Of a DNA stretch of 51,564 nt, positions 8,791 to 22,338 are shown piece by piece (position 1 is the stretch's first letter; each line of letters starts with the position of its first letter). Below the pieces are notes generated by a model, which was given only the letters and a program-made list of their open reading frames with translations, was not told the DNA's origin and ran no database searches. The stretch is from assembly GCA_965648905.1 (NCBI GenBank), contig CBFGIT010000019.1, positions 1 to 51,564 on the forward strand, written 5' to 3'. A program made the position numbers and the translations under genes. The DNA is from a candidate division WOR-3 bacterium. Its GTDB lineage: Bacteria; Hydrothermota; Tepidihabitantia; Tepidihabitantales; Tepidihabitantaceae.

Positions 8791-11721
8791 ATGAAGCTGA
8801 GTAGCTTGTCCTCCAGAGTCCTATGCCCGGGCCTGGTGTTGCTCGCCCTGGCCTCGACCCTCCACGCACAAGTTGAAGTATGGAAATCAGAATACAGCGC
8901 AGGCGGCACGACCTGCTTCGGTAAGCGCATCGCCTTGTCGCCGGATAGCGCCGTGGTTGTCGGGGTGACCTATGCTGACGCGGTCGGCAAGCGCAGTCTG
9001 GCGATGCTGAAATACTCGGCAAGAACCGGCGAAACGCTGTGGACCACGCGGTGGCTGGGTGATTCGACGGCCGATTCATCCCGAGTGTGGGCGATGGCTG
9101 TTGATAGCGCGGGCAACATCTTCGCTGCCTGCTACACCGCGATGGGCATGAACTGGGATTGGCTTACACTCAAGTATCTGCCGAACGGTACGTTGGCCTG
9201 GGCTGCGCGCTATGACAACGGGGGGTTCGACGTTCCGCTCTGTATCCTTCCGGATAACCGGGGCGGAGTTATCACCGCAGGCAGCAGCACGACGATGTCG
9301 GGCTGGGTGGACGCGACCGCGATTCACTACAACGCTTCCGGCGACAGCACCTGGTTCTTCAGAATCGATGGTCCAGCGCACGGCAGGGACCATTTCTGGG
9401 CACTGGCTCCAGGGCCCGACGGCTCGGTCTATGCGGCTGGAGACATCACGCTCACGACCGAGAGTGCTTACGACTGGTTCGTAGTCAGACTCGACAGTCT
9501 TGGTGATACACTCTGGACTCGAACCTACGACGGTACGTCATCGGGCAACCCGCTGATAGAGAACGACGTCGTCGTGACCCTGAAGACCGATGCCTCGGGG
9601 AACTGCTACGCGATTGGCAAGGCTGGCGAGGCGGGTGAGTGGGTGAATGCGGTGACCATCAAGTACGCACCGGACGGCACGCAGGCGTGGCGGCACAGCT
9701 TTGACTGGGGCAATGCCGGCAGTGAAGTCGCGTCTCATATCGGGCTCGATTCGTTCGGCAATGTCTATGTCGGCGGCTGTGTGGATGAAGGCGACGGCTG
9801 GGACATGCTGGTGTACAGCCTGAGTCAGGATTCTGCGCCCGCACTACGCTGGAAGCGGCGGTTCAACTACGTGAATGCCGGTGACGACGACAGCCTGACC
9901 GGGATGGCCGTGGACTTGAGCGGCAACGTCTATCTGACCGGGCTGTCGAACACAACCAATCTCGACATTGAGTGGTGGACGCTCAAGCTCTCGCCTTGGG
10001 GTGACACCATCTGGAGCGTGACCAACGGCCGGCTTGACACTGACAACTCGCCGTACGGTCTGGTTCTTGACGGCCGGGGCGACGTATACGTTACCGGCTA
10101 CGAAACGCCGTCAACCAGCCGGCCCGAGCAGGCCGTGACCGTCCGCTACACCGAAAACGACGTCGGCGTGTTGAGGATCGCGATGCCGGCTGACAGCTTC
10201 CGGCTCGGCGCGACCGTGACCCCGCGTGCCTGGGTGCGCAACTACGGTGGCATGATGGAACGTTCCTTCACCGTGCGGCTCGACATCGGCAGTCTGTATA
10301 CCGATGCGGAGAATGTTGATTCGATTCCGGCGTTCGATTCGGTGCTGGTCCGGTTCGCCGCATTGCGCATCGAGGAGCGGGCGCTCGGCACTCATCCGAT
10401 GGTCTGCTACACGATGTTGACCCAGGACAAGGAGCGGGTCAATGACACGGCGCGCGGCCGGCTGACCGGCGTGGCGGTCTGGGAGCAACTGGCGTCGCTG
10501 CCGCCCGGCCCGAAGAACAAAGACATCAAGGACGGCGGTGCGCTCGGGTTTTCCCCGGATTCGCTTGTGTTTGCGTTCAAGGGCAACAACACGACCGAGT
10601 TCTACGCCTTCAACACGCTCCGTGGCACCTGGCGGGCGCGAGAGTCCATCCCGGCCATCGGCCGGTCGGGCAGCAAGAAACGCGTCAAGGCCGGAGGCCG
10701 GCTTGCCGGTGACACGATCGGCTACATGTACGCGCTCAAAGGGAACAACTCGCTTGAGTTCTGGCGCTACTCGGTGCGGGGTGATTCCTGGAAACAGATG
10801 GACGACATGCCGTTCGGTGCCTCAAACAAGAAGGCGAAAGGCGGAGCGGTTCTGGTCTATGTACCGGCCCAGAACCGGCTCTATGCGGCCAAAGGTGCGA
10901 GTACGCTTGAATTCTACACCTTCGATGTTGCTCGGGATACCTGGCTGGTTCGAACCAGCGTGCCGGTCGGCCCGGCCAACCGCAAACTCAAGGACGGCAC
11001 AGTTGCGGCTTATGACGGACAGAACACGATCTACCTGATGAAGGGCGCCACCTACGAGTTCTGGTCGTACAACGTCTACTCCGATTCCTGGACCAAACGG
11101 CCTGACCTGACCAACAGCCGACTCTCAACCAAGAAGAAGAAGATGAAGAAGGGTGCAGGCATGGCCTTTGACCCGCAGTTCCGTCGGGCGTGGACCATGA
11201 AGGGCGGCAAACTCATCGAGTTCTGGTTCTTCGATGCGGCCGGTGACTCCTGGCATGAGACCGACGACCTGTTTCCGATGCCGCCTTTGGGTCGGGCGCC
11301 CTATGCGGGCGGGGACCTGTGCTACGGTGCGGGTAAGGTCTATGCTTTCCGGGGTAACAAGACCCGCGACTTCTACCGCTACCATGCTAACTTCCCGCTC
11401 ACACCGCCCGATACCTGGGACGGCGCTCAGGCCCGACCGGTGAATCTGGCCCGGCTCAGCCTGTTCTGCGCACCCAACCCGGTGGTCCGACTGGGTTGGC
11501 TTCACTACTCGCTGCCCTCCCCCGGCCGTGTCCGGCTTGTGCTCTATGACGTTTCCGGCCGTGTCGTGCGGATCGTCCAAGAAGGCCGACAGACACGCGG
11601 CGAGCACGTTGCAGCGCTCCGGGCCGACGGTCTGGCTGCGGGCGTCTACGTTGCCAAGCTCTGGCTCGTGACCGAAGCCAAGACCGACGTGGTCACACGC
11701 AAAGTCCTCATTGCGCGGTGA
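8791..11721 (+). CDS. secreted protein: SBBP-like beta-propeller, 1 Ig/CARDB-like repeat, Kelch-like propeller, T9SS-type-A-like C-terminal sorting domain
   Basis: signal peptide; AVDxxGNxYxxG blades; KGNNT repeats; C-terminal PNP...LYDVSGR...LAAGVY...KVL. Confidence 0.85.
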   Translation: MKLSSLSSRVLCPGLVLLALASTLHAQVEVWKSEYSAGGTTCFGKRIALSPDSAVVVGVTYADAVGKRSLAMLKYSARTGETLWTTRWLGDSTADSSRVWAMAVDSAGNIFAACYTAMGMNWDWLTLKYLPNGTLAWAARYDNGGFDVPLCILPDNRGGVITAGSSTTMSGWVDATAIHYNASGDSTWFFRIDGPAHGRDHFWALAPGPDGSVYAAGDITLTTESAYDWFVVRLDSLGDTLWTRTYDGTSSGNPLIENDVVVTLKTDASGNCYAIGKAGEAGEWVNAVTIKYAPDGTQAWRHSFDWGNAGSEVASHIGLDSFGNVYVGGCVDEGDGWDMLVYSLSQDSAPALRWKRRFNYVNAGDDDSLTGMAVDLSGNVYLTGLSNTTNLDIEWWTLKLSPWGDTIWSVTNGRLDTDNSPYGLVLDGRGDVYVTGYETPSTSRPEQAVTVRYTENDVGVLRIAMPADSFRLGATVTPRAWVRNYGGMMERSFTVRLDIGSLYTDAENVDSIPAFDSVLVRFAALRIEERALGTHPMVCYTMLTQDKERVNDTARGRLTGVAVWEQLASLPPGPKNKDIKDGGALGFSPDSLVFAFKGNNTTEFYAFNTLRGTWRARESIPAIGRSGSKKRVKAGGRLAGDTIGYMYALKGNNSLEFWRYSVRGDSWKQMDDMPFGASNKKAKGGAVLVYVPAQNRLYAAKGASTLEFYTFDVARDTWLVRTSVPVGPANRKLKDGTVAAYDGQNTIYLMKGATYEFWSYNVYSDSWTKRPDLTNSRLSTKKKKMKKGAGMAFDPQFRRAWTMKGGKLIEFWFFDAAGDSWHETDDLFPMPPLGRAPYAGGDLCYGAGKVYAFRGNKTRDFYRYHANFPLTPPDTWDGAQARPVNLARLSLFCAPNPVVRLGWLHYSLPSPGRVRLVLYDVSGRVVRIVQEGRQTRGEHVAALRADGLAAGVYVAKLWLVTEAKTDVVTRKVLIAR

Positions 11722-11730
11722 GGAGAACCG

Positions 11731-11860
11731 ACCACCAGGGGCACTGACGTTCTGGAGGTAGGAACGCTCACCACCAAGGACACAAAGGTCCCGGACATAG
11801 GAGTGTCAACCACCAAGGACACCAAGAGCACCAAGGTGCCGGAGCTAGGAGTGTTAGCTA
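11731..11860 (+). repeat. tandem array of ACCACCA(A/G)G units, left flank
   Basis: units at 11731, 11770, 11809 and a degenerate one at 11857; spacings 39/39/48. Confidence 0.85.
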
Positions 11861-12032
11861 CCGAGAATCCGAAAAACCCATGGCGCGTGAGACGCGCAGG
11901 TCAAAGGTCAGAAGGCAAAGGTCGAAACGGCGTTCCTGGTGAGGCTGGCGGCCGGCTTGTTCCAAGAGACCATTCTCCCGGTCTTCGCGTGCTTGGTGGT
12001 CTTGGTGGTGAGTCTGTCCGGGCAGTCCGATC
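11781..12032 (+). repeat. long direct repeat copy 1, with internal inverted repeat
   Basis: core 11805-12020 matches 12618-12833 with 7 mismatches counted by eye; 11809-11831 is imperfectly complementary to 11989-12009. Confidence 0.92.
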
Positions 12033-12080
12033 CGGCGCACCTGATGGTCGAGGCCTGACCGAACCTATTCTGAGCCGAGA

Positions 12081-12476
12081 GTGAGAACCTTCGTGCCCGT
12101 GTCGGCCGATGCTGACCGGATCGCAGGTGCCATTGTCGATGCTGTGTTCAAAGTGCACAGGACACTGGGCCCGGGCCTGCTTGAGTCGGTCTACGAGACC
12201 TGTCTTGCTCACGAGTTGACAGTTAGAGGACTGCGGGTTGAGCGCCAGGTCGTTCTGCCGATCAACTACGAAGGTGTGACGCTCGACGCCGGCTTCCGGC
12301 TGGACCTACTGGTCGAAGAGCAAGTGGTGGTCGAGGCGAAGGCGGTAGAACAGATGCACCCGCTGTTCGAGGCGCAACTGCTGACCTACCTGAAGTTGAC
12401 CGGTCTGCGCGTCGGCCTGCTCGTTAACTTCAACGTCAGACTCATCCGAGATGGAATCAAACGCATGGTGCTGTGA
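12081..12476 (+). CDS. GxxExxY protein (PD-(D/E)XK nuclease superfamily)
   Basis: VHRTLGPGLLESVYE, FRLDLLVE, VVEAKAV, QLLTYLK, GLLVNF. Confidence 0.93.
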   Translation: MRTFVPVSADADRIAGAIVDAVFKVHRTLGPGLLESVYETCLAHELTVRGLRVERQVVLPINYEGVTLDAGFRLDLLVEEQVVVEAKAVEQMHPLFEAQLLTYLKLTGLRVGLLVNFNVRLIRDGIKRMVL

Positions 12477-12486
12477 CGGTGAGTCT

Positions 12487-12675
12487 GCCACCAAGAGTAC
12501 GGAAGATACAGGGCGTGAGGAGACAAGGATGCTAACCACCAAGAGCCTTTGGGTTACGGATACCGAGAGGTCGACCACCAGGGACATCAGGAGCACAAAG
12601 GTCCGGGACACCGGAATGTCAACCACCAAGGACACCAAGAGCACCAAGGTGCCAGAGCTAGGAGTGTTAGCTACC
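12487..12675 (+). repeat. tandem array of (A/G)CCACCA(A/G)G units, right flank
   Basis: units at 12487, 12535, 12574, 12622 and a degenerate one at 12670; spacings 48/39/48/48. Confidence 0.85.
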
Positions 12676-12842
12676 GAGAATCCGAAAAACCCATGGCGCG
12701 TGAGACGCGCAGGTCAAAGGTCAGAAGGCAAAGGGCAAGACGGCATTCCTGGTGAGGCTGGCGGCCGGCTTGTCCCAAGAGACCATTCTCCCGGTCTTCG
12801 TGTGCTTGGTGGTCTTGGTGGTGAGTCTGTCCGAGTCCGATC
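12594..12842 (+). repeat. long direct repeat copy 2, with internal inverted repeat
   Basis: 813 bp downstream of copy 1; 12622-12644 is imperfectly complementary to 12802-12822. Confidence 0.92.
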
Positions 12843-12846
12843 GTGC

Positions 12847-15800
12847 GTGCTTGGTGTTGTTTTCTTCCTGCCGGTGCTGGTCTTCGCCGCGCGGGTGGAT
12901 ACGATGTGGGTGCGGCATTATGAGGGTTCGGACGCAAACCGGCGCGAGTGGAACCAGGCTGCCAAGGTCCTGGTCGATACTGCGCGCAACCACGTGTTTG
13001 TCTGCGGCGTGGGCGAAGTCATCTACACCGGCAACAGCGACATGCTGGTGGCGATGTACAACCGCAACGGCGTGCTGCTCGATACGGTGGCAATCGGCGG
13101 GTACATGTCCGGCGGCATCGACATGGCCCATTCGATGGTCCTCAACGACTCGGGCAACCTGTACGTCGTCGGGTTCACCTACAACTATCAGCGCGGTGAG
13201 GACGTGTCGTGGGTCAAGGTGCCAATCCTGGGCGACACGTTCGGCGAGATAACGGTGCGCAAGACCTATTGGTGGACCGGCGACGACGTCGGTACCGACA
13301 TAGTTGTCGGCAAGTCGGGCGACATCTACATCTGCGGCACGCGCAACGATACCCGGCTGGGGCTGAGTGCGTTTCTTGTCATGCGTATCAGACCGGACAA
13401 TGCCGACACCATCTGGACCCGCAGTTTCTTTCTCGATACGATGGCCTGGCAGCGGGCCAGGCGCCCACGGCGGGACCTGCACCCGGAATTCCTTGAGTTC
13501 GACTACGACGAGTTCGAGAACTGTGCGACCGCAATGGCGGTCGCGTCGGACTCGAACATCGTTGTGACCGGATTCGGCACCCACTCAGAGCGGGCCCGGG
13601 ACTGGTGGACGATGAAGCTCAGGCCCACCGGTGATACGGTCTGGACCCGGACGTTCCGCAACCCCAGTACCGCGGACACGACCGATGACGACGTGGCGTT
13701 CGACGTTGCTGTTGCCAGTACCGGCGACATCTACTGCGTCGGCTTCACTTACTATGACAACCTGAGCGGCACACGGGGCGACTATGACTACACCGTGGCC
13801 CGTTACTCCGGCTCGGGGACGCTGATGAACTCGCTGACCCGGAACTTCACCTCGGTGAACGGCGACGACATCGCATACTCGATTACGCTCGACGACTCAA
13901 CACCCCAGAACGTCTACGTCACCGGCAAGCTCGAGAACAACAACTCAGACCAGGTCAACACACTTAAGCTCTCAGCCAGCCTGGCCACGCGCTGGGGCAC
14001 GAGCGGAGCAGTGTACGACGGGCCGGGCGACGACCAGGGATACGACGTGCACTACAACTCCGGCAAGGTCTACGTTGCCGGCCGCCGTGGGGGCAGCGGC
14101 AGCGGGTCGGACGACATCATGCTGCTCTGTTACGACGCAGCCAACGCTTCGCCCAAGGACACGGTCTGGGGCTATTTCTACAACCACCCGGATGGACTTG
14201 AAGATTACGCGGCAAGCGTGACCGCGACCGACTCGAACAACATCTATCTTGCCGGTCAGTCGCTGCGTGCCGGCATAACCTACTGGAACAGCCTGTTCCT
14301 TGCCCGGCTGTTCAACCCGCGGCCGGACGCGGCAGTACGACGGATTGTCGCCCCGGTCGATACGGTCGGATTGCAGGATACGATTCGGCCCTGCTGCGTC
14401 GTGGCCAACACCGGCAACACCAACGCAACCTTTCGTACGTACCTGACCATCGGCACAACGTACCGGGACAGCTTCTTGAACGTGAACCTGGCCCCGGGCG
14501 ACTCCGCGGTCGATACTTTTGCGCTCTGGGTCGCTCAGCCACTCGGGCCGGTGGTTGTCAAGTGCACGGTTGCGCTGGCCAACGATACGGTGCCGGAGAA
14601 CAGCCGGCTTGTCGACACGGTGCTCGTGGCCGTACGCGATGTGGCGTGCAGTCTTCTGGTCGCACCGGTCGGCGAACTCGATTCTGGTACTCTTGTTGTG
14701 CCTCAGGCCTGGGTGAGTAATCAGGGCAGCATTGGCCTGGCATTCGACTGCCGGATGGCAGTCGGCGACTTCTATGCCGACACTCAGCGCGTGAGTCTTG
14801 GCCCGGGCAGCAGCACGCTGGTTCAGTTCGACTCGCTCCTGCTCCGGCGTCGGGGAGCGTGGGCTGTGATCTGTTCGACCATGCTGGATCGTGACCGGGC
14901 CGACTCGAACAACTTCCGGCGTGACACGGTTCGGGTTCACGTCACCGACGTTGGTCTCGTGGCAATCGTCGCTCCGGCAGACACGGTCGATTCCGGCGCA
15001 TTGATTCAGCCGGCGGTGAGGCTGGGGAACTACGGCACGCGGGTTGCGAACTTGCCGGTGCGGTTCATGATGGGGTATGGCGCGGACACGGTCGCATACC
15101 TTGAGTCTCTAAATGTCGTGCTTGCACCGGCGGCAGAATCAGTGGTCGTGTTCAGCTCGACGCTGAGACCAGCCCGGGTCGGAAGATGGCGGGTTGCTTC
15201 CTGGCATCGTCTGACCGGAGACCAGCATCCGGAGAATGACTCGCTCGCAAGGCCACTTTTTGTCCGGCCGCCGGGCGGGATGAGCTGGCCCCCAGGCTGG
15301 CGCGAGGTGCGTTCGATGCCCTTGGGCGGAGGCAGAGATGTCAAAGGTGGCGGAGCTTTGACAGCCGGGCCGGGTGCAATCTATGCCACAAAAGGCAACA
15401 AGACAAGCGAGTTCTACTCCTACAACTACGCGCGTGATTCGTGGGCCACACTTGCACCGGTTCCGCCCGGCCGCGAGAACAAGCCCTGTGACAAGGGCTG
15501 TCGGATCGCGAGCGACGGCGGTAGCAATATCTACCTGGTGAAAGGCAATAACACGCTCGGGTTCTTCCGTTACTCTATTCCCGACTCAGGCTGGACTCAG
15601 CTTGAGGACGTGCCGGTCGGCACAACCGGCAAAAAGGTCAAAGGCGGAACCGATTTGGTCTATGTGCCGGGACCAGAGGTCAAAGGCCACAGTGTAGAAA
15701 AACGGCAGGATGACGAGAATAACCAAGCGCCAGGTGCTGATGGCCAATCCGCAGCAGACGGATATCTCTACCTGCTCAAGGGCTACAAGAACGAGTTCCA

Positions 15801-16593
15801 TCGGTTCAACACGACGACCGGCCATTGGGAGACGATGCAGCCGGCTCCAGGCGCAATTCAGAAATGGGACAAGGGTTCGTTCCTTGTTTACGACAACAGC
15901 CATACGATATACGCCCACAAGTCCAAGTACAACGAGCTCTGGCGCTACGATTCTGACTCGGCCCGATGGGGAGCGCAACTGACCGGCATGCCCTTCTACA
16001 ACTCTCAGGGCAAGAAGAAGAAAGCCAAGGACGGCTCGGCCGGCGCATGGTTCCAAGGCTCAATCTACGCACTGAAAGGTGGAAACACGCAGGAGTTCTG
16101 GCGTTACTTTGCCGGGCGTGACAGTTGGGCCGAACTTGAGACCCTGCCCCTGGTCGGCTCGTCACAGCGCAAGAAAAAGGTCAAGGACGGCGGTGACCTT
16201 GTTCTTGGGGCGTACGCCTTCTGGGCGCTTAAGGGCAACAAGACCCGCGAGTTCTGGCGCTACGGCATCGCACTCGACGCGACTGGGGACATGACGTCAG
16301 GCCGGGTACACGATCCCGATTGTCGGACAATCGGGTCATGTCCCCGTTTCCGGGTCGTGACCAGTCCTCTTGCCGAGAGGCCGGTACTGGTGTATACTCA
16401 TACCGAGGCAACTGTGTTGACGGCAAGGGTCTATGATGCGGCGGGAAGGCTTGTTGCCGTTCCGCTGACCGGCTACAGGATTTCCGGACCGGGCTCAGTC
16501 AGGCTAAGCACTGGAAAGCTGGCCAGTGGTGTTTACCTCCTGCAGGTGACCGCTGGAGATGCAGTGCAATGTAGTAAACTGGTCGTCCGCTAA
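12847..16593 (+). CDS. secreted protein: beta-propeller, 3 Ig/CARDB-like repeats, Kelch-like propeller, T9SS-like CTD (start uncertain: 12529, 12616 or 12847)
   Basis: hydrophobic LGVVFFLPVLVFA; paralogous to 16627-22272; repeats begin PDAAV/RDVAC/TDVGL; CTD VYDAAGR...LASGVY...KLVVR. Confidence 0.8.
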   Translation: MLGVVFFLPVLVFAARVDTMWVRHYEGSDANRREWNQAAKVLVDTARNHVFVCGVGEVIYTGNSDMLVAMYNRNGVLLDTVAIGGYMSGGIDMAHSMVLNDSGNLYVVGFTYNYQRGEDVSWVKVPILGDTFGEITVRKTYWWTGDDVGTDIVVGKSGDIYICGTRNDTRLGLSAFLVMRIRPDNADTIWTRSFFLDTMAWQRARRPRRDLHPEFLEFDYDEFENCATAMAVASDSNIVVTGFGTHSERARDWWTMKLRPTGDTVWTRTFRNPSTADTTDDDVAFDVAVASTGDIYCVGFTYYDNLSGTRGDYDYTVARYSGSGTLMNSLTRNFTSVNGDDIAYSITLDDSTPQNVYVTGKLENNNSDQVNTLKLSASLATRWGTSGAVYDGPGDDQGYDVHYNSGKVYVAGRRGGSGSGSDDIMLLCYDAANASPKDTVWGYFYNHPDGLEDYAASVTATDSNNIYLAGQSLRAGITYWNSLFLARLFNPRPDAAVRRIVAPVDTVGLQDTIRPCCVVANTGNTNATFRTYLTIGTTYRDSFLNVNLAPGDSAVDTFALWVAQPLGPVVVKCTVALANDTVPENSRLVDTVLVAVRDVACSLLVAPVGELDSGTLVVPQAWVSNQGSIGLAFDCRMAVGDFYADTQRVSLGPGSSTLVQFDSLLLRRRGAWAVICSTMLDRDRADSNNFRRDTVRVHVTDVGLVAIVAPADTVDSGALIQPAVRLGNYGTRVANLPVRFMMGYGADTVAYLESLNVVLAPAAESVVVFSSTLRPARVGRWRVASWHRLTGDQHPENDSLARPLFVRPPGGMSWPPGWREVRSMPLGGGRDVKGGGALTAGPGAIYATKGNKTSEFYSYNYARDSWATLAPVPPGRENKPCDKGCRIASDGGSNIYLVKGNNTLGFFRYSIPDSGWTQLEDVPVGTTGKKVKGGTDLVYVPGPEVKGHSVEKRQDDENNQAPGADGQSAADGYLYLLKGYKNEFHRFNTTTGHWETMQPAPGAIQKWDKGSFLVYDNSHTIYAHKSKYNELWRYDSDSARWGAQLTGMPFYNSQGKKKKAKDGSAGAWFQGSIYALKGGNTQEFWRYFAGRDSWAELETLPLVGSSQRKKKVKDGGDLVLGAYAFWALKGNKTREFWRYGIALDATGDMTSGRVHDPDCRTIGSCPRFRVVTSPLAERPVLVYTHTEATVLTARVYDAAGRLVAVPLTGYRISGPGSVRLSTGKLASGVYLLQVTAGDAVQCSKLVVR

Positions 16594-16626
16594 CTGGCGG
16601 CGGCCCTGATTGAATCGGAGGTCATT

Positions 16627-19600
16627 GTGAGAGCTAGTATTGTCCTGACTGCAGTATTGCTGCTTGTTCCGGCGCTGGCCGTGGCACAGCCGTCGGTCCC
16701 GCTTGATACGTTCTGGGTTCGGCACTACGAAGGCGACGATACCACCCCAGGCTCAAAGTGCATGAACATGGCTGCGGATATTGTCCACGACCCGGCGCGA
16801 CACATCGTCTACACTGGCGGCTCAGGCGAAGATAACTACCCGGGTAAGAACGACATGTTGGTTGCCGCCTACCTTGATGACGGCACATACCTGTCGGCGT
16901 TCTGCATGGGCGGGCTGAGTGCTGAGGACGCGGACATGGTGCATACGGTGGCGCTGGACGAGAACGGCAGCGTCTTTGCCGGCGGTTCGACCTACAATGT
17001 GCAGAATCGCTACTGGGACGCGTCGTTCTTCAAGGCAAACTGGCGCGTCGGCAGAACTCCCCCTGACAGCTTCATCAACTTTTTCAAGAGCACTTTCCCA
17101 GCAGATGACTATGCTTTTGACATGGTTCTCGGCACGCGCAACGACGTCTTCCTCTGCGGTACGAACGACACGCTGGTTGGCATCTACCGCGGGTTCGCGT
17201 TTTCGGTCACTAGGGTGTCACGAACGAGCTTTGCTCGCGTGTGGACCATGAACTTCGTTCTCGACACCTTGGCCTTTGGCTCGCAGCGTCGGCACGGGCT
17301 CGATTTGCACCCGGACTTCTGGGAGCTGGGCGAGTGGGGGCAGTTTGAGAACTGCGCGACAGCCATCGCCTTGTGCCCGGACGGCAACATCGCGGTGACC
17401 GGGTTCGGGTACTCTGATGCCTATGCCTATGAGTGGTGGACGATGAAGCTGGACAGCGCCGGGAACGTGCTCTGGCAGCGTTCGTTCCACGACACGCTCT
17501 CCCGAGGCGGGGACTCGGACGACGACATCGCGCTGGACATTGCGGTTGCTGCGAACGGCGATATCTACGTCTGCGGGTTCACCTATCGGGACCTGCCGGG
17601 CAATAACGACCAGGGCGACAACTTCACGGTCGTGCGCTATAGCTCTTCGGGTGAGCTGCTCAACGCTCGATTCATCAACATTGCCGCAGTGAACGGCGAC
17701 GACTACGCCTACAGCATCTGTCTGGACGACTCAAATCCCCAGAACGTCTATGTGGCCGGCACAGTTGACTACGGTTCTTCGCTCAACTCCCAGGTCACGG
17801 TTCAGAAGTTCAACTCAACCCTTGACTCGTTGTATTGGGGCACGTCCGGTGCGAGCTGGGGCGGCTCGGGCGATGATGCGGCATACAGGGTCGTGTACCG
17901 CAACGGGCGGGTCTATGTTGCCGGGCGCCGGGGCTCGGGCACGATGGGCTCGACGAGCGACGATATCCTTGTGCTCTGTTACACCGCAGCCAACAGTACG
18001 ACCAAGGATACACTCTGGGGCCGGTTCTATGCCCACAGTGACGGAGGAGAGGACTACGCGAGCGCGATTTTCGTTACCGACTCGAACAATATCTACGTCG
18101 GCGGTCAGTGCGAGCGGACCGGCATGACAAGCTGGAGCAGCATGTGGACCGCGCGCTACGGTCATCCTTATCCGGACGTGCGGGCCGTACAGATTCTTGC
18201 GCCGGTGGGCACGATTCCGGTCGGCAGCCCGGCAATCCGGCCGATTGCCCGGGTGCAGAACGTCGGTACAACGACCGCAACGTTCCAGACTCGAATCAGC
18301 ATTACCGGGCCTTCGCCGGCGGTGTACGACACTTTCCTGAACGTCAGGCTGGCCCCGGGCGCGTACGCCACTGATACTTTTGCCCGGAGTTTCAATCCGA
18401 CCACAGTCGGGATGCACATTGTCCGGTGCAGCACCGCCTATGACGGTGACATGGTCCAGACTAATAACCTCGTCGTGGACACATTCTACGTTGTGTCGGG
18501 CGCGGCTGACGTCGGCGTGTTCATGATTACCGCACCGACCGGCCCACTCGAGTACGGCACGAGCGTGGCGCCGGCCTGTTCAGTCCGCAACTACTCGGCA
18601 ACTGCGATACCGTCGGTGCCAGTACGGATGACTCTGCCCGGCTATGTTGTTGATACAACCGTGGCGCTGGCGGCAAACCAGCGCATTCGTATCGTCTGGC
18701 CGAACTGGACCGCAGGCCCACCCGGCTGGGACAGCATCATTTCGTACACCTATCTGGTCGGCGACCCGGTGCGGAGCAACGACACGGCCCGAAACCGGGT
18801 TTGGGTGCGCGGGCTCGACGTTGCGGTCCGGGCCGTCACCCTGCCGCCGGATTCAGTGGATGCGGGGGCGTCGGTTCCGGTTCAGGCGCGGGTGAGGAAC
18901 ATGCGGAACGTGGCCGTGCCGGCGTTCCAGGTGATGATGCGGATTGCCGGCGGCTACTTCGCGACCGTGAACGTTACCGGACTTGCGCCGAGCGAGAGTC
19001 TGCTCGTCGATTTTCCGAACTGGGGTCCGGTCACGCCCGGTTGGGCGGCAATCAAGTGTTCGCTCTACTGCGCGGTCGACACGTTCTTCCCGAATGATAC
19101 GTTGAAAGACAGTTCGTATGTGCGCGGGCCGGACGTGGGCGTGAGTGCGATTCTTGCGCCACTTGACACCGTGGATATGGGTGCGGTCGTCACGCCGCGG
19201 GCGATTGTGCGCAACTACCGCAGCGTGGCGGTCTACGGTGTGCCGGTGAAGCTGAACATCGGTGCGGCCTATGCCGACTCGCTGACCTGTGACCTGGCTG
19301 CAAACGGAACCGATACGGTTGCATTCCGCGACTGGACCGCGGCTCCGCTCGGGCTCTTGCGCGAGTCGTGCTACACCCGGATGGTCGGTGACATGACCCG
19401 CACCAACGACACGGCCCGGGCATGGGTCTTTGTCCGGGCACCGGACTGCGGGGTGAGTCAGATTCTTGCGCCGACCGGAGCAGTCGAGTACGGCGCAGTG
19501 GTTACGCCGCAGGCCGTGGTGCGGAACTATCGGAGCGTGGGAGTGAACGTGCCGGTGAAGTTCGCCATCCAGGGCGGGTACCAGGATTCGGTGACCGTCG

Positions 19601-22272
19601 CCCTGGCCGGCTATCAGACGGACACGGTCGAGTTCCAGGACTGGAACGCCACCGCGCTCGGGTTACGGCGCGAGTCTTGTTTCACGCGTCTCGCAACCGA
19701 CGGCAACCGGGCAAACGACACGGCCCGGGCCACGGTCTGGGTGCGGGGACGGGACGTGGGCATCACCGCGATTCTCTCACCGCCCGACTCGGCCGACCTG
19801 GGCGGAGTCTACACCCCGCAGGCTGTGGTGCGAAACTATCGCAATGTGGCTGTGCCGGTTGTGCCGGTGCGGATGTACATCGGCATGGGGTACAACAACA
19901 TCGTCAATGTCGCCCTGAGCCCGAACCAGATTGACACGGTTGACTTCCCGAACTGGAACGCCGCGGCGCTCGGGGCTTTCACCGTGCGCTGCACCCTGGC
20001 AGTACCGGGCGACAGTTTCCTGCCCAACGATACGATGAGCAAGGTCACGATTGTGCGTGGGCCGGACGTGGGCGCGTTCCGCCTGCTGGCGCCGGCTGGA
20101 ACCTATGTGCCCGGTGCGGTTGTCACACCCCGGGCACGAGTGCGCAACTACCGGAGTGTAGCCCAGCCTTCAGTACCGGTCAGGATGCGCATCGGCGCAG
20201 GGTACCAGCGCGACACCACGGTTGCGCTACCGGCTTTTGACTCGGTCGAAATCGCCTTCGCTAACTGGACTGCGAATCCGCCGGGCATGCATATCGCCAA
20301 GTGCTCGACACGGCTTTTCAGCGACGTCTATCCGCCGAACGATGCGGTCGAATGCACCGTGTTCGTCGCGAGTCGCGACGTGGCCTGTACGCGCATCGTC
20401 GCACCGCTGGGCACAGTCGACTCGGGTGCGACCGTTACGCCTCAGGCCTGGCTTCGCAATTACGGTAATACCGGCGAGGTGTTCGACTGCCGGATGCTCA
20501 TCGGCTCGTTCTACGCCGACACGGCAAACGTAGTTCTGGCTGCGGGTGACAGCGTTCTTCGTTCGTTCCGGCCCGTAACTTTGAGTCTGCTCGGCCAGTG
20601 GGCGGTTAACTGCTCGACCATGCTCGGGGCAGACCTCGTGCCGTCGAATGACCGGGCAATTGACTCGGTGCTGGTCCGGGTCTTTGACGTTGTGGCCCGG
20701 ACCATCGTCGCACCGGTCGATACGGTTGACTCTGGTACTGTGGTCGTGCCGCGACTGCGCGTGGCCAATCTCGGCAGCACGGCCCAGACTTTCTGGACCC
20801 ATTTTCTGTTCCAGCCTGGAGCCGGGCCCGTGTTCTATCGTGATTCGCTGCGTGTGACGCTGGCGGCTAGGGCTGAGTCGGTTCTGACCTTTGGGCCGAG
20901 CCAGCCGGTGAACCAGTTCGGGACCTGGCGTACCCTAGGCTGGTGTGCAGCCGGAGACCCGTATCCGCAGAACGACACCGCGCGCGGCCAGTTCTTCGTA
21001 CCGGGCCGGGGCGGCATTAGCTGGCCTCACGGCTGGCACGAGGTCGCTTCGATGCCGCTGCCGCCGAGCCAGCGCATGATTCGGGACGGCGGAGCCTTGA
21101 CCGTGATGGAGGATTCGCTGGTCGGACTGATTTATGCGACCAAAGGCAACAAGAGCGCGGACTTCTATTCCTACAACTGCATCGCCAATAGCTGGGCAAC
21201 GCTAACACAGATTCCTACTGGTCGCGAGGGCAAGCTGACCGGCAAAGGTACCCAACTGTGCGCGGACGCGGCCGGCCATGTCTACATGACCAAGGGGAAC
21301 AACACACTCGGGTTCTGGCGCTACAGTGTGGCTGATTCGTCCTGGACTCAGCTTGCCGACGTGCCGCTCGGGACAACCCGCAAGAAGGTTAAGGGCGGGA
21401 CCGACATGGCCTACGTCGTCAAGAACGACGTCGGCTACGTCTACCTGCTGAAAGGCGACCGGAACGAGTTCCACCGATACAACACCGCAACTGACTCCTG
21501 GCAGACCATGGCCCCGGCTCCGGGTATAAGAATCAAGTGGGCCAAGGGGTCCTTCCTGGTGTATGACCATGAGCATACTATCTACGCGCACAAGGCCGGG
21601 TACAATGAGCTCTGGAGCTATGACACCGACCGCGATACCTGGGGCCCGCAACTGACCGGGATGCCGCTCTACGGCCAACTGGGCCGGAAGAAGAAGTCGA
21701 AGGACGGCGGAGCCGGAGCATGGTACCTGGACGGGTTCTACGCGTTCAAGGGTGGCAATACCCAGGAGTTCTGGCAGTACGTTCCTGCCCGCGATAGCTG
21801 GTTCGAGTCGGATACGATTCCCGCAGTCGGCTCGTCCGGCCGGAAGAAGAAGGTGAAGAACGGCGGCGACCTGGTCTACAATGCCTTGGCGTTCTGGGGA
21901 CTGAAAGGGAACAAGACCCTGGAGCTCTGGCGCTATGGCATACTTGAGACTTCGGCTCGGGTGCTGGACCGACGGCCTGACCCGGGTGGAGTCTGGTCGT
22001 CGCCGGCAGCGCTCCGCTCTTCTGGGAACGCGATTGTCCCGAACCCCCTGTCAGACGGCATGGCCGTGCTGCGGCTCGACCGCGGACTGGCCCGCAGTCC
22101 GGTGACGGTGCGTGTGTTCGATGCGACCGGCCGGCTAGTTCAGTGTTCAGCATTCAGCACTCAGCGCGCTGCGGTTCTGCTTGACCTTCGGCAGTTGCGC
22201 GAGGGTGTGTATCTGGTTCAGGTTGAAGCGGGCGGCGCAGTCGTGCTGCAGAGCAAGCTGGTCCGACACTGA
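16627..22272 (+). CDS. large secreted protein: beta-propeller, 9 Ig/CARDB-like repeats, Kelch-like propeller, T9SS-like CTD
   Basis: GGAGG SD; signal peptide ending ALAVA-Q; nine ~103-aa repeats starting xD(V/C); CTD PNP...VFDATGR...LREGVY...KLVRH. Confidence 0.88.
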   Translation: MRASIVLTAVLLLVPALAVAQPSVPLDTFWVRHYEGDDTTPGSKCMNMAADIVHDPARHIVYTGGSGEDNYPGKNDMLVAAYLDDGTYLSAFCMGGLSAEDADMVHTVALDENGSVFAGGSTYNVQNRYWDASFFKANWRVGRTPPDSFINFFKSTFPADDYAFDMVLGTRNDVFLCGTNDTLVGIYRGFAFSVTRVSRTSFARVWTMNFVLDTLAFGSQRRHGLDLHPDFWELGEWGQFENCATAIALCPDGNIAVTGFGYSDAYAYEWWTMKLDSAGNVLWQRSFHDTLSRGGDSDDDIALDIAVAANGDIYVCGFTYRDLPGNNDQGDNFTVVRYSSSGELLNARFINIAAVNGDDYAYSICLDDSNPQNVYVAGTVDYGSSLNSQVTVQKFNSTLDSLYWGTSGASWGGSGDDAAYRVVYRNGRVYVAGRRGSGTMGSTSDDILVLCYTAANSTTKDTLWGRFYAHSDGGEDYASAIFVTDSNNIYVGGQCERTGMTSWSSMWTARYGHPYPDVRAVQILAPVGTIPVGSPAIRPIARVQNVGTTTATFQTRISITGPSPAVYDTFLNVRLAPGAYATDTFARSFNPTTVGMHIVRCSTAYDGDMVQTNNLVVDTFYVVSGAADVGVFMITAPTGPLEYGTSVAPACSVRNYSATAIPSVPVRMTLPGYVVDTTVALAANQRIRIVWPNWTAGPPGWDSIISYTYLVGDPVRSNDTARNRVWVRGLDVAVRAVTLPPDSVDAGASVPVQARVRNMRNVAVPAFQVMMRIAGGYFATVNVTGLAPSESLLVDFPNWGPVTPGWAAIKCSLYCAVDTFFPNDTLKDSSYVRGPDVGVSAILAPLDTVDMGAVVTPRAIVRNYRSVAVYGVPVKLNIGAAYADSLTCDLAANGTDTVAFRDWTAAPLGLLRESCYTRMVGDMTRTNDTARAWVFVRAPDCGVSQILAPTGAVEYGAVVTPQAVVRNYRSVGVNVPVKFAIQGGYQDSVTVALAGYQTDTVEFQDWNATALGLRRESCFTRLATDGNRANDTARATVWVRGRDVGITAILSPPDSADLGGVYTPQAVVRNYRNVAVPVVPVRMYIGMGYNNIVNVALSPNQIDTVDFPNWNAAALGAFTVRCTLAVPGDSFLPNDTMSKVTIVRGPDVGAFRLLAPAGTYVPGAVVTPRARVRNYRSVAQPSVPVRMRIGAGYQRDTTVALPAFDSVEIAFANWTANPPGMHIAKCSTRLFSDVYPPNDAVECTVFVASRDVACTRIVAPLGTVDSGATVTPQAWLRNYGNTGEVFDCRMLIGSFYADTANVVLAAGDSVLRSFRPVTLSLLGQWAVNCSTMLGADLVPSNDRAIDSVLVRVFDVVARTIVAPVDTVDSGTVVVPRLRVANLGSTAQTFWTHFLFQPGAGPVFYRDSLRVTLAARAESVLTFGPSQPVNQFGTWRTLGWCAAGDPYPQNDTARGQFFVPGRGGISWPHGWHEVASMPLPPSQRMIRDGGALTVMEDSLVGLIYATKGNKSADFYSYNCIANSWATLTQIPTGREGKLTGKGTQLCADAAGHVYMTKGNNTLGFWRYSVADSSWTQLADVPLGTTRKKVKGGTDMAYVVKNDVGYVYLLKGDRNEFHRYNTATDSWQTMAPAPGIRIKWAKGSFLVYDHEHTIYAHKAGYNELWSYDTDRDTWGPQLTGMPLYGQLGRKKKSKDGGAGAWYLDGFYAFKGGNTQEFWQYVPARDSWFESDTIPAVGSSGRKKKVKNGGDLVYNALAFWGLKGNKTLELWRYGILETSARVLDRRPDPGGVWSSPAALRSSGNAIVPNPLSDGMAVLRLDRGLARSPVTVRVFDATGRLVQCSAFSTQRAAVLLDLRQLREGVYLVQVEAGGAVVLQSKLVRH

Positions 22273-22289
22273 CCGGCCCGGAGTAGTAA

Positions 22290-22321
22290 TCGAGCGGCCG
22301 GGCAATTGCCCGGCCGCTCGA
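22290..22321. terminator. perfect 32-bp palindrome between convergent genes; putative bidirectional terminator
   Basis: TCGAGCGGCCGGGCAATTGCCCGGCCGCTCGA. Confidence 0.7.
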
Positions 22322-22338
22322 CTAGTGTTGAGTTGTAT

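Follow-up and report, generated by a model that had tools for sequence, protein, structure and literature searches.

A GxxExxY nuclease gene between inverted-repeat modules at an operon junction of a WOR-3 bacterium: a candidate repeat-plus-nuclease cassette

The window analyzed here, a stretch of 51,564 nucleotides from a candidate division WOR-3 bacterium, carries an insertion of about 1.1 kb in which a small nuclease gene of the GxxExxY family lies between two copies of a hairpin-forming repeat. On balance, we regard the insertion as a likely selfish cassette made of repeats plus a nuclease, in which the nuclease would nick the repeats of its own arms and so drive their copying and, occasionally, its own relocation. 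The comparisons described below establish the insertion itself, the family-wide occurrence of the arms, the existence of gene-less modules, the predicted fold with its conserved catalytic residues and the purifying selection on the gene. They also bear out part of the initial annotation of this DNA, its proposal of a nuclease-plus-repeat module analogous to RAYT/REPIN, in that the gene family is accompanied by arms across phyla, gene-less copies occur, and empty sites were found in both directions.

The insertion lies between two genes for surface proteins, designated A and B (Table 1). We compared 29 gene A homolog loci from relatives, 27 of which had DNA downstream of the stop codon. A gene B homolog directly follows A on its 3' side in 18 of those 27 loci, representing 10 genera, and at 17 of the 18 an ATG is found 6-28 nt past the A stop; a GxxExxY gene was present at none of the 29. 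Two much closer metagenome relatives (A 90-91% and B 86-88% identical at the amino acid level) have neither the gene nor the module, and the distance from the A stop to the first conserved motif of B is 150-212 nt in them versus 1173 nt in the window. The empty site that the initial annotation had proposed to look for in relatives is thus represented by the 18 A-B loci and the two close relatives. By these comparisons the 1.1 kb is shown to be an insertion at the operon junction, and the cassette at this junction is confined to the window lineage among the genomes compared.

Table 1. Features of the insertion and its flanking genes, in window coordinates
Feature	Position	Strand	Remarks
Host gene A (976 aa), an SBBP beta-propeller protein with T9SS-type C-terminal domain	8791..11721	+	left flank
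Whole insertion, about 1.1 kb	11722..12837	.	edges approximate; no counterpart at the junction in relatives
Forward-unit array 1	11731..11835	+	CACCAAG-type units at 11733, 11772, 11781, 11811, 11820, 11829
Direct repeat copy 1, a hairpin module	11772..12032	+	forward arm, ~150-nt interior, reverse arm
Stop-free frame through repeat 1	11803..12084	+	in frame with gene A stop; its TGA overlaps the nuclease GTG start
Inner 6-bp hairpin	11883..11897	.	second copy 12696-12710
Heptamer tract of second repeat family	11899..11926	+	second copy from 12712
Reverse arm 1	11983..12022	-	includes stem-extending GGTGAGTCTG tail at 12007
GxxExxY / PDDEXK_3 gene, 131 aa, GTG start	12081..12476	+	G32-E35-Y38 motif, D75, E85, K87, Q99-Y103
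Remnant tail of reverse arm	12478..12487	-	directly 3' of nuclease stop
Forward-unit array 2	12487..12648	+	units at 12489, 12537, 12576, 12585, 12594, 12624, 12633, 12642
Copy of A-stop junction sequence	12510..12531	+	ribosome-binding-like GAGGAG and ATG (12529) in gene B frame
Direct repeat copy 2, a hairpin module	12585..12842	+	open in gene B frame
Reverse arm 2	12796..12835	-	
Host gene B, Kelch/beta-propeller protein with T9SS-type C-terminal domain, intact; GTG 12847 is one of three possible starts	12847..16593	+	

The two close relatives carry other, gene-less repeat types at the same junction, again with no nuclease gene: a reverse CGCCAAG-type arm with heptamers in one (L274) and a pure heptamer run in the other (L275). 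The A-B junction is a repeat hotspot that attracts repeats, and the occurrence there of other repeats without a nuclease gene means that repeats can arrive by another route. Gene B could start at the GTG at 12847, or at an ATG at 12529 or 12616 inside the repeats, the first of these having GAGGAG ahead of it. The idea that gene B had lost its start codon was weakened by the presence in the close relatives of an ATG near the position of the window GTG. As a side observation, positions 8791-22272 encode three tandem paralogous large surface proteins (976, ~1250 and 1881 aa) with Kelch-like repeats and the T9SS-type C-terminal domain, and the third also has repeated CARDB-like units of about 103 aa. 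A near-perfect palindrome with 22-nt arms (22287-22324), probably a bidirectional terminator, lies between convergent genes.

With regard to the repeats themselves, two near-identical direct copies 813 bp apart with a core ~97% identical had been described, and our measurements agree: 11772-12020 and 12585-12833 align without gaps over 249 nt at 94% identity and a spacing of 813 (blastn: 257 nt at 94.2%, 11777-12032 versus 12589-12842), and the core at 11809-12019 has 7 differences in 211 nt (96.7% identity). The copies differ at 15 of the 249 sites, their longest identical run is 80 nt, and identity drops leftwards from 97% to about 68%. A weaker match, in which the arrays align at 67 of 99 bases, extends the duplication left to the gene A stop, and an 11-nt stretch that follows the gene A stop in the close relative L274 recurs identically at 12510, before array 2. 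These matches hint, weakly since the unit consensus itself has similar bases, that the duplication may cover the whole junction region of about 310-330 nt. An 8-bp target duplication around module 2 was considered and dropped, as the same bases follow the reverse arm of module 1 and are arm sequence; the best outer-edge match for a target-site duplication is 6 nt that overlap the arm consensus, the edges being eroded.

Each repeat is a hairpin module. The pairing predicted for it, enclosing an inner hairpin, was recovered: pairing between forward and reverse arm is present in the minimum-energy structure as well as in the centroid, and predicted DNA structures show it too. The four arm pairings are of near-equal stability as RNA (-43 to -47 kcal/mol), a single forward arm folds at -0.2 kcal/mol and the reverse arms alone at -2 to -6 kcal/mol. 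The arm stem contains internal loops, and the gain of the whole module over shuffles is modest (z -1.77; 7 of 200 shuffles were equally good). The phased units stood up to inspection in their 39/48-bp spacing, to which 9-bp internal repeats can be added (array 1 has a degenerate 39-bp period with a 9-bp sub-period), but the linkers, described as variable, are not independent spacers; they are degenerate versions of a single 39-bp unit (mean column identity 57%). A spacer-array or CRISPR-like reading was discarded on the grounds that the linkers are homologous to each other and that an Rfam search gave only a chance-level match (E 0.4). Similarly, GGTGAGTCTG does occur on both sides of the gene (12007, 12478 and 12820), but it is not the separate motif it was taken for: it makes up the outer portion of the reverse arm's stem, its pairing partners being bases that lie immediately beyond the forward arm. 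No sigma-70-like promoter was found in 11500-13000, and the overlap of TGA and GTG at the nuclease start makes translational coupling possible.

The gene between the repeats is the lone, intact GxxExxY gene that the initial annotation had recognized, and the sole short one in the genome; a divergent one is contained in a 269-aa ORF on contig C3. It matches both TIGR04256 (E 1.2e-44; 151.4 bits versus a cut-off of 35) and PF13366 (E 1e-42; 145.6 bits versus 22), and so belongs to GxxExxY/PDDEXK_3, a very widespread family that is listed as of unknown function in PMC3424549. The structure predicted for the protein (pLDDT 93.9) has its best fold matches among PD-(D/E)XK nucleases, including the Cas4 SSO0001 (Z 7.7, rmsd 4.3, 100 aligned) and BpuSI (Z 7.7, rmsd 2.5, 89 aligned), with this top Z shared with others; the nearest folds are mostly those of DNA nucleases, with Cas4 and restriction enzymes at the top. 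Residues E35, Y38, E85, K87, N116 and F117 are invariant across 112 sequences and D75, Q99 and Y103 nearly so, such that model and conservation together present a PD-(D/E)XK core fold with the acidic, acidic and lysine catalytic residues. The Q-x-x-x-Y element is a motif of the RecB/Cas4 type. A PDB sequence search with the nuclease found no relative, Foldseek with the model returned nothing at E<=0.001, PHROG gave no match and PADLOC only Cas4 (E 0.011), and the 131 aa were found to contain no separate DNA-binding domain or HUH motif. At an orthologous Anaerolineales locus dN/dS is ~0.05, and between the window gene and its nearest relatives dS is 1.8-2.4, near saturation, with a dN of 0.2. 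As modeled, the protein comprises little more than a Cas4-like PD-(D/E)XK core, whose catalytic residues are intact, and it is under purifying selection. The PD-(D/E)XK fold hydrolyses and does not rejoin, so that any insertion must be completed by host repair.

Arms were scored at 101 short GxxExxY loci, comprising the window locus, 20 from the host order and 80 from other phyla picked by similarity. Full flanks were available for 99; one duplicate and some 25 Anaerolineales loci that are orthologous are included in this set. At 84 of the 99, inverted arms made of 8-9-bp units (score of at least 24) were found, versus 13 of 565 shifted controls; the link of arms to other GxxExxY genes, one of the points on which the initial annotation had staked its proposal, holds. 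The window locus itself scored 21, below the threshold, because its forward arm falls beyond the 150-nt search window. Eight of ten viral loci also had arms (two of these loci being alike), and none of the ten long, 270-aa forms did. The left arm starts -12 to 45 nt from a same-strand stop codon at 59 of 85 loci, versus 79 of 1700 random points.

The direct repeat of ~250 bp, by contrast, cannot be upheld as the design of the family. In the layout count (n=94, with 24 Anaerolineales orthologs/duplicate and unlabelled loci taken out), 73 loci have the basic design of inverted arms, forward arm-gene-reverse arm, versus four with the hairpin-gene-hairpin form seen in the window. The direct repeats of the window are the longest and best-scoring of the layout comparison; the runners-up measure 234 nt (83% identity) and 96 nt (94% identity). 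The doubled-module form recurs independently in Terriglobia, Sumerlaeota and Anaerolineales, and within a near-identical Anaerolineales clade the gene stays at one inherited locus while its arms gain and lose hairpin modules, which demonstrates that a doubled form can develop from the simple one without a change of site.

Several variants were also observed among these loci. The 270-aa GxxExxY-like subfamily (L002, C3:27830-28639; L023-L031), which is common in the host order and has no repeat arms, gives two partial profile matches at some loci, which suggests a tandem domain. At L021, L063 and L098 no stop interrupts the nuclease frame over long upstream stretches (294, 333 and 969 codons), which suggests that at least in L098 the nuclease is fused in frame with a host gene; the open frame of L021 may be chance. 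Finally, the arms of L198, L209 and L125 face outward (reverse upstream of the gene, forward downstream), and L125 has a 96-nt back-to-back doublet that is duplicated on both sides of the gene.

The type of unit was then compared with the relationships of the proteins, using a poorly resolved tree of 132 proteins from which 13 loci were left out as broken, edge or duplicate. Twelve unit types require 24 changes on this tree, compared to a shuffle mean of 48.9 (minimum 45; n=119 labelled), and for the 46 loci not picked by similarity the corresponding numbers are 17 and 31.8. Unit type is correlated with the protein tree across phyla; labels common to kin, which are not independent, reflect joint inheritance and not recognition. 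Several unit types can coexist in one genome, each paired with a protein of its own, and the CACNAAG type is found in many phyla.

Among the nuclease loci of relatives, 24 of 37 have flanks that adjoin, empty, in the window genome; 20 of these are solid, and they correspond to about 12 junctions, among them the site occupied in the nearest relatives of the window protein (70-71% identical). Window-type proteins that are 59-71% identical occupy four different sites in one family. The pattern of occupied and empty sites argues that the cassette has moved, but not recently: there is one short gene in the genome, dS is near saturation and the Anaerolineales clade retains its gene at one inherited locus.

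Gene-less unit doublets were found at five other sites of the genome, in addition to one lone match at chance level. The solo copies that the initial annotation had suggested searching for genome-wide thus exist, as gene-less doublets and modules. The interior of the window module is, except for its heptamer tract, private to the site, and no complete copy of it occurs in the rest of the genome. A gene-less module of ~230 nt on contig C23 (C23:19042-19290; L231:2043-2290) separates an ATG, three bases past the upstream stop, from the signal peptide and keeps the reading frame of the gene downstream; relatives lack an insert there, and in all 18 that share the gene pair the junction carries no units. 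The flanking genes we take to encode a probable TonB receptor and a probable lipoprotein. Across 61 genomes, in which kin are not independent, the short gene is present in 15 of 18 with at least four unit doublets versus 6 of 43 others. Only 7 of the 18 repeat-rich genomes, whose assemblies are fragmented, showed a gene of the cognate unit type, and this counts against a strict dependence of the repeats on the nuclease. Mobilization by the genome's Y1 transposases was also considered and dropped: there is none in the cassette, and of the two PF01797 genes one has no unit within 700 nt and the other a single lone unit.

A second repeat family, of heptamers, forms about 40 clusters in the genome versus none in shuffles, and tracts of heptamers or similar short units flank all seven four-helix-bundle genes inspected. 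These genes (TIGR02436; 7 full-length and 2 partial matches) sit between short-unit tracts, mostly as inverted arms, at sites such as L222-L228 (C3:86831, C2:124252, C8:36943, C39:17896), which is the layout of the GxxExxY cassettes with a non-nuclease cargo, and gene-less tracts are scattered through the genome. In the composite gene-less modules L232 (C21:23205-23480), L233 (C9:72063-72205) and L234 (C15:53945-54116), arms of 9-bp units enclose heptamer tracts, as in the window module; the two repeat families nest in each other.

If the cassette works as we propose, the nuclease would recognize the unit that goes with it, probably in single-stranded or hairpin DNA in the manner of Ssn and RAYT proteins, and nick the arms; host repair or recombination would then complete the process, copying modules locally and sometimes moving the gene. 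Nicks at two inverted arms would fall on opposite strands, and their repair could then either replace the loop, giving arm-gene-arm, or duplicate the whole module, giving the form in the window. It is possible, though speculative and in our estimation doubtful, that the gene landed in this way in a gene-less module already present at the junction, with repair of the nicks replacing the loop or duplicating the module. Its position behind a stop codon, its orientation along the operon and the in-frame starts that remain for gene B would explain why the cassette is tolerated. The most far-reaching version, which we consider unlikely as a whole, is that of a minimal mobile element free of transposase, integrase and reverse transcriptase, consisting of a 130-aa Cas4-like nuclease and a tandem unit, in which the inverted arms are nicked on opposite strands, host repair inserts the gene and each protein clade has its own unit code; the window would then be a snapshot of a 250-330-bp target duplication of the whole module. 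The leftward fall of repeat identity is not what a clean single duplication predicts.

The alternative that survives best, although we judge it somewhat unlikely, is that the nuclease is a domesticated, repeat-specific enzyme resembling SsnA that cuts incoming or exposed single-stranded DNA bearing the unit on behalf of the host, with arms that spread by recombination or slippage and a gene that hitch-hikes. In its favor are strong purifying selection and stable inheritance at one site, the one copy per unit type in the genomes examined and the expansion and contraction of arms around a fixed gene; furthermore, the SsnA of Neisseria, which is flanked by its cognate repeats, modulates transformation (PMC11893778). 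It is important to note, however, that some 12 insertion junctions within one order, each empty in the window genome, and arms that hug the gene as terminal inverted repeats are a better fit to a unit of movement.

We see a distinctly smaller chance that the cassette acts at the RNA level in the manner of 23S rRNA intervening sequences, its arms pairing in the transcript so that RNase III or the nuclease cuts the stems and either removes the insert or uncouples expression of A and B. Such an element in Coxiella, an ORF framed by terminal inverted repeats that contain heptamers, is a substrate of RNase III (PMC4990558), and the cassettes do read with the host operon, sit after stop codons and have four arm pairings of about equal stability as RNA. 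Yet the nearest folds are mostly those of DNA nucleases, the stem has internal loops and a folding z of only -1.77, the orientation bias can also be put down to selection for expression, and RNA processing would leave the arrival at new sites unexplained.

Excision of an 813-bp unit, in which recombination of the direct repeats would free a circle of the gene and one module for re-integration into solo modules, is permitted by the geometry of 249-nt repeats with an 80-nt identical run. We nevertheless rate it as very improbable in light of the divergence of the copies at 15 of 249 sites, the lack of a second target (the module interior having no full copy elsewhere in the genome), the rarity of direct repeats, which are missing from most family members, and the absence of a single-module allele from both close relatives. 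The single DNA read run (word share 0.07) left 11908-12191 uncovered and gave no joint spanning the element, and is uninformative on circles or collapse. Least credible of all is an assembly artefact or a chance local duplication unlinked to the nuclease, which the 60-contig state of the assembly might suggest but against which stand 15 differences between the copies, differing flanks, an arm-gene link over about 100 loci and the doubled layout in three other lineages.

Under our favored reading, that of a selfish repeat-plus-nuclease cassette, this locus and its relatives give GxxExxY/PDDEXK_3 a concrete candidate substrate in the flanking unit with its clade-specific code. If the nuclease cuts, it would be a third enzyme fold, after the RAYT tyrosine transposase and the GIY-YIG Ssn, in repeat-plus-enzyme systems; it would also account for a common kind of intergenic repeat that lacks an explanation and could be a source of small site-specific nucleases, of which there would be a large natural set if each clade does have its unit code. 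The window contributes clean empty sites at two evolutionary distances, together with the doubled module, a rare form that constrains the mechanism of insertion.

Among the openly readable main texts, we found no description of a link between GxxExxY genes and repeats; in the parts of PMC4679880 that concern heptamer repeats, these are described and the GxxExxY gene is not. Comparisons with several known systems are nonetheless instructive. The 23S rRNA intervening sequences (S23p, a four-helix bundle) likewise have an ORF in a stem loop of short-unit terminal inverted repeats (PMC4990558), and are linked to the window genome by its four-helix-bundle genes with heptamer arms and by the heptamer tract inside the module; the window cassette, however, lies between two protein genes and not in rRNA, and its cargo is a nuclease. 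The homing endonuclease I-Ssp6803I is, like the window protein, a small PD-(D/E)XK enzyme from an invasive element with the same catalytic core (PMC3384342), but here there is no intron or intein and no single conserved target, and there are instead repeat arms and ~12 junctions in one order. The Cas4/lambda-exonuclease fold also has this catalytic core, with window fold matches that are modest (Z 7.7). Unlike an insertion sequence, the cassette has one short gene with no transposase domain and no near-identical copies in the genome.

The closest parallels are with two repeat-plus-enzyme systems. In Ssn/SRM (SsnA-NTS), as in the window, a small single-domain nuclease gene lies between cognate repeats that also occur solo in the genome, and repeat variants go with protein variants, as they do at GxxExxY loci; its authors likened the layout to an insertion sequence and proposed domestication (PMC11893778). 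The window shares this plan: repeats of the nuclease's own type lie to either side of the gene and also occur without it at other sites. Ssn, however, is a GIY-YIG enzyme (cd10448) whose cleavage has been demonstrated (PMC11893778), whereas the window protein belongs to PF13366, has the PD-(D/E)XK fold with no GIY/YIG motif, and has its cleavage predicted from that fold. Moreover, the SRM is a 20-50-nt self-hairpin according to the same source, while each window arm, built of tandem 9-bp units, has its only pairing partner in an inverted arm some distance away, and the published degenerate SRM pattern had no matches in 11701-12870.

REPIN-RAYT systems resemble the window in their extragenic inverted doublets with variable spacer and hairpins, in their gene-less copies and in the single-copy, long-inherited enzyme gene tied to the repeats (PMC3337134, PMC5581495). 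The window module likewise consists of two inverted repeats and a spacer, forms a hairpin and is extragenic. REP units are palindromic, but the window arm units are not (a forward arm alone folds at -0.2 kcal/mol), copy number in the window genome is low, with 5 gene-less sites, and GxxExxY insertion junctions vary widely within one order. The RAYT tyrosine transposase can cut and rejoin, whereas the window protein has a hydrolytic nuclease fold with no HUH motif. Given its different enzyme fold, the lack of an SRM match and its non-palindromic arms, the cassette falls outside both systems; by analogy, the best reading is that it works like Ssn/SRM or RAYT/REPIN while being a member of neither.
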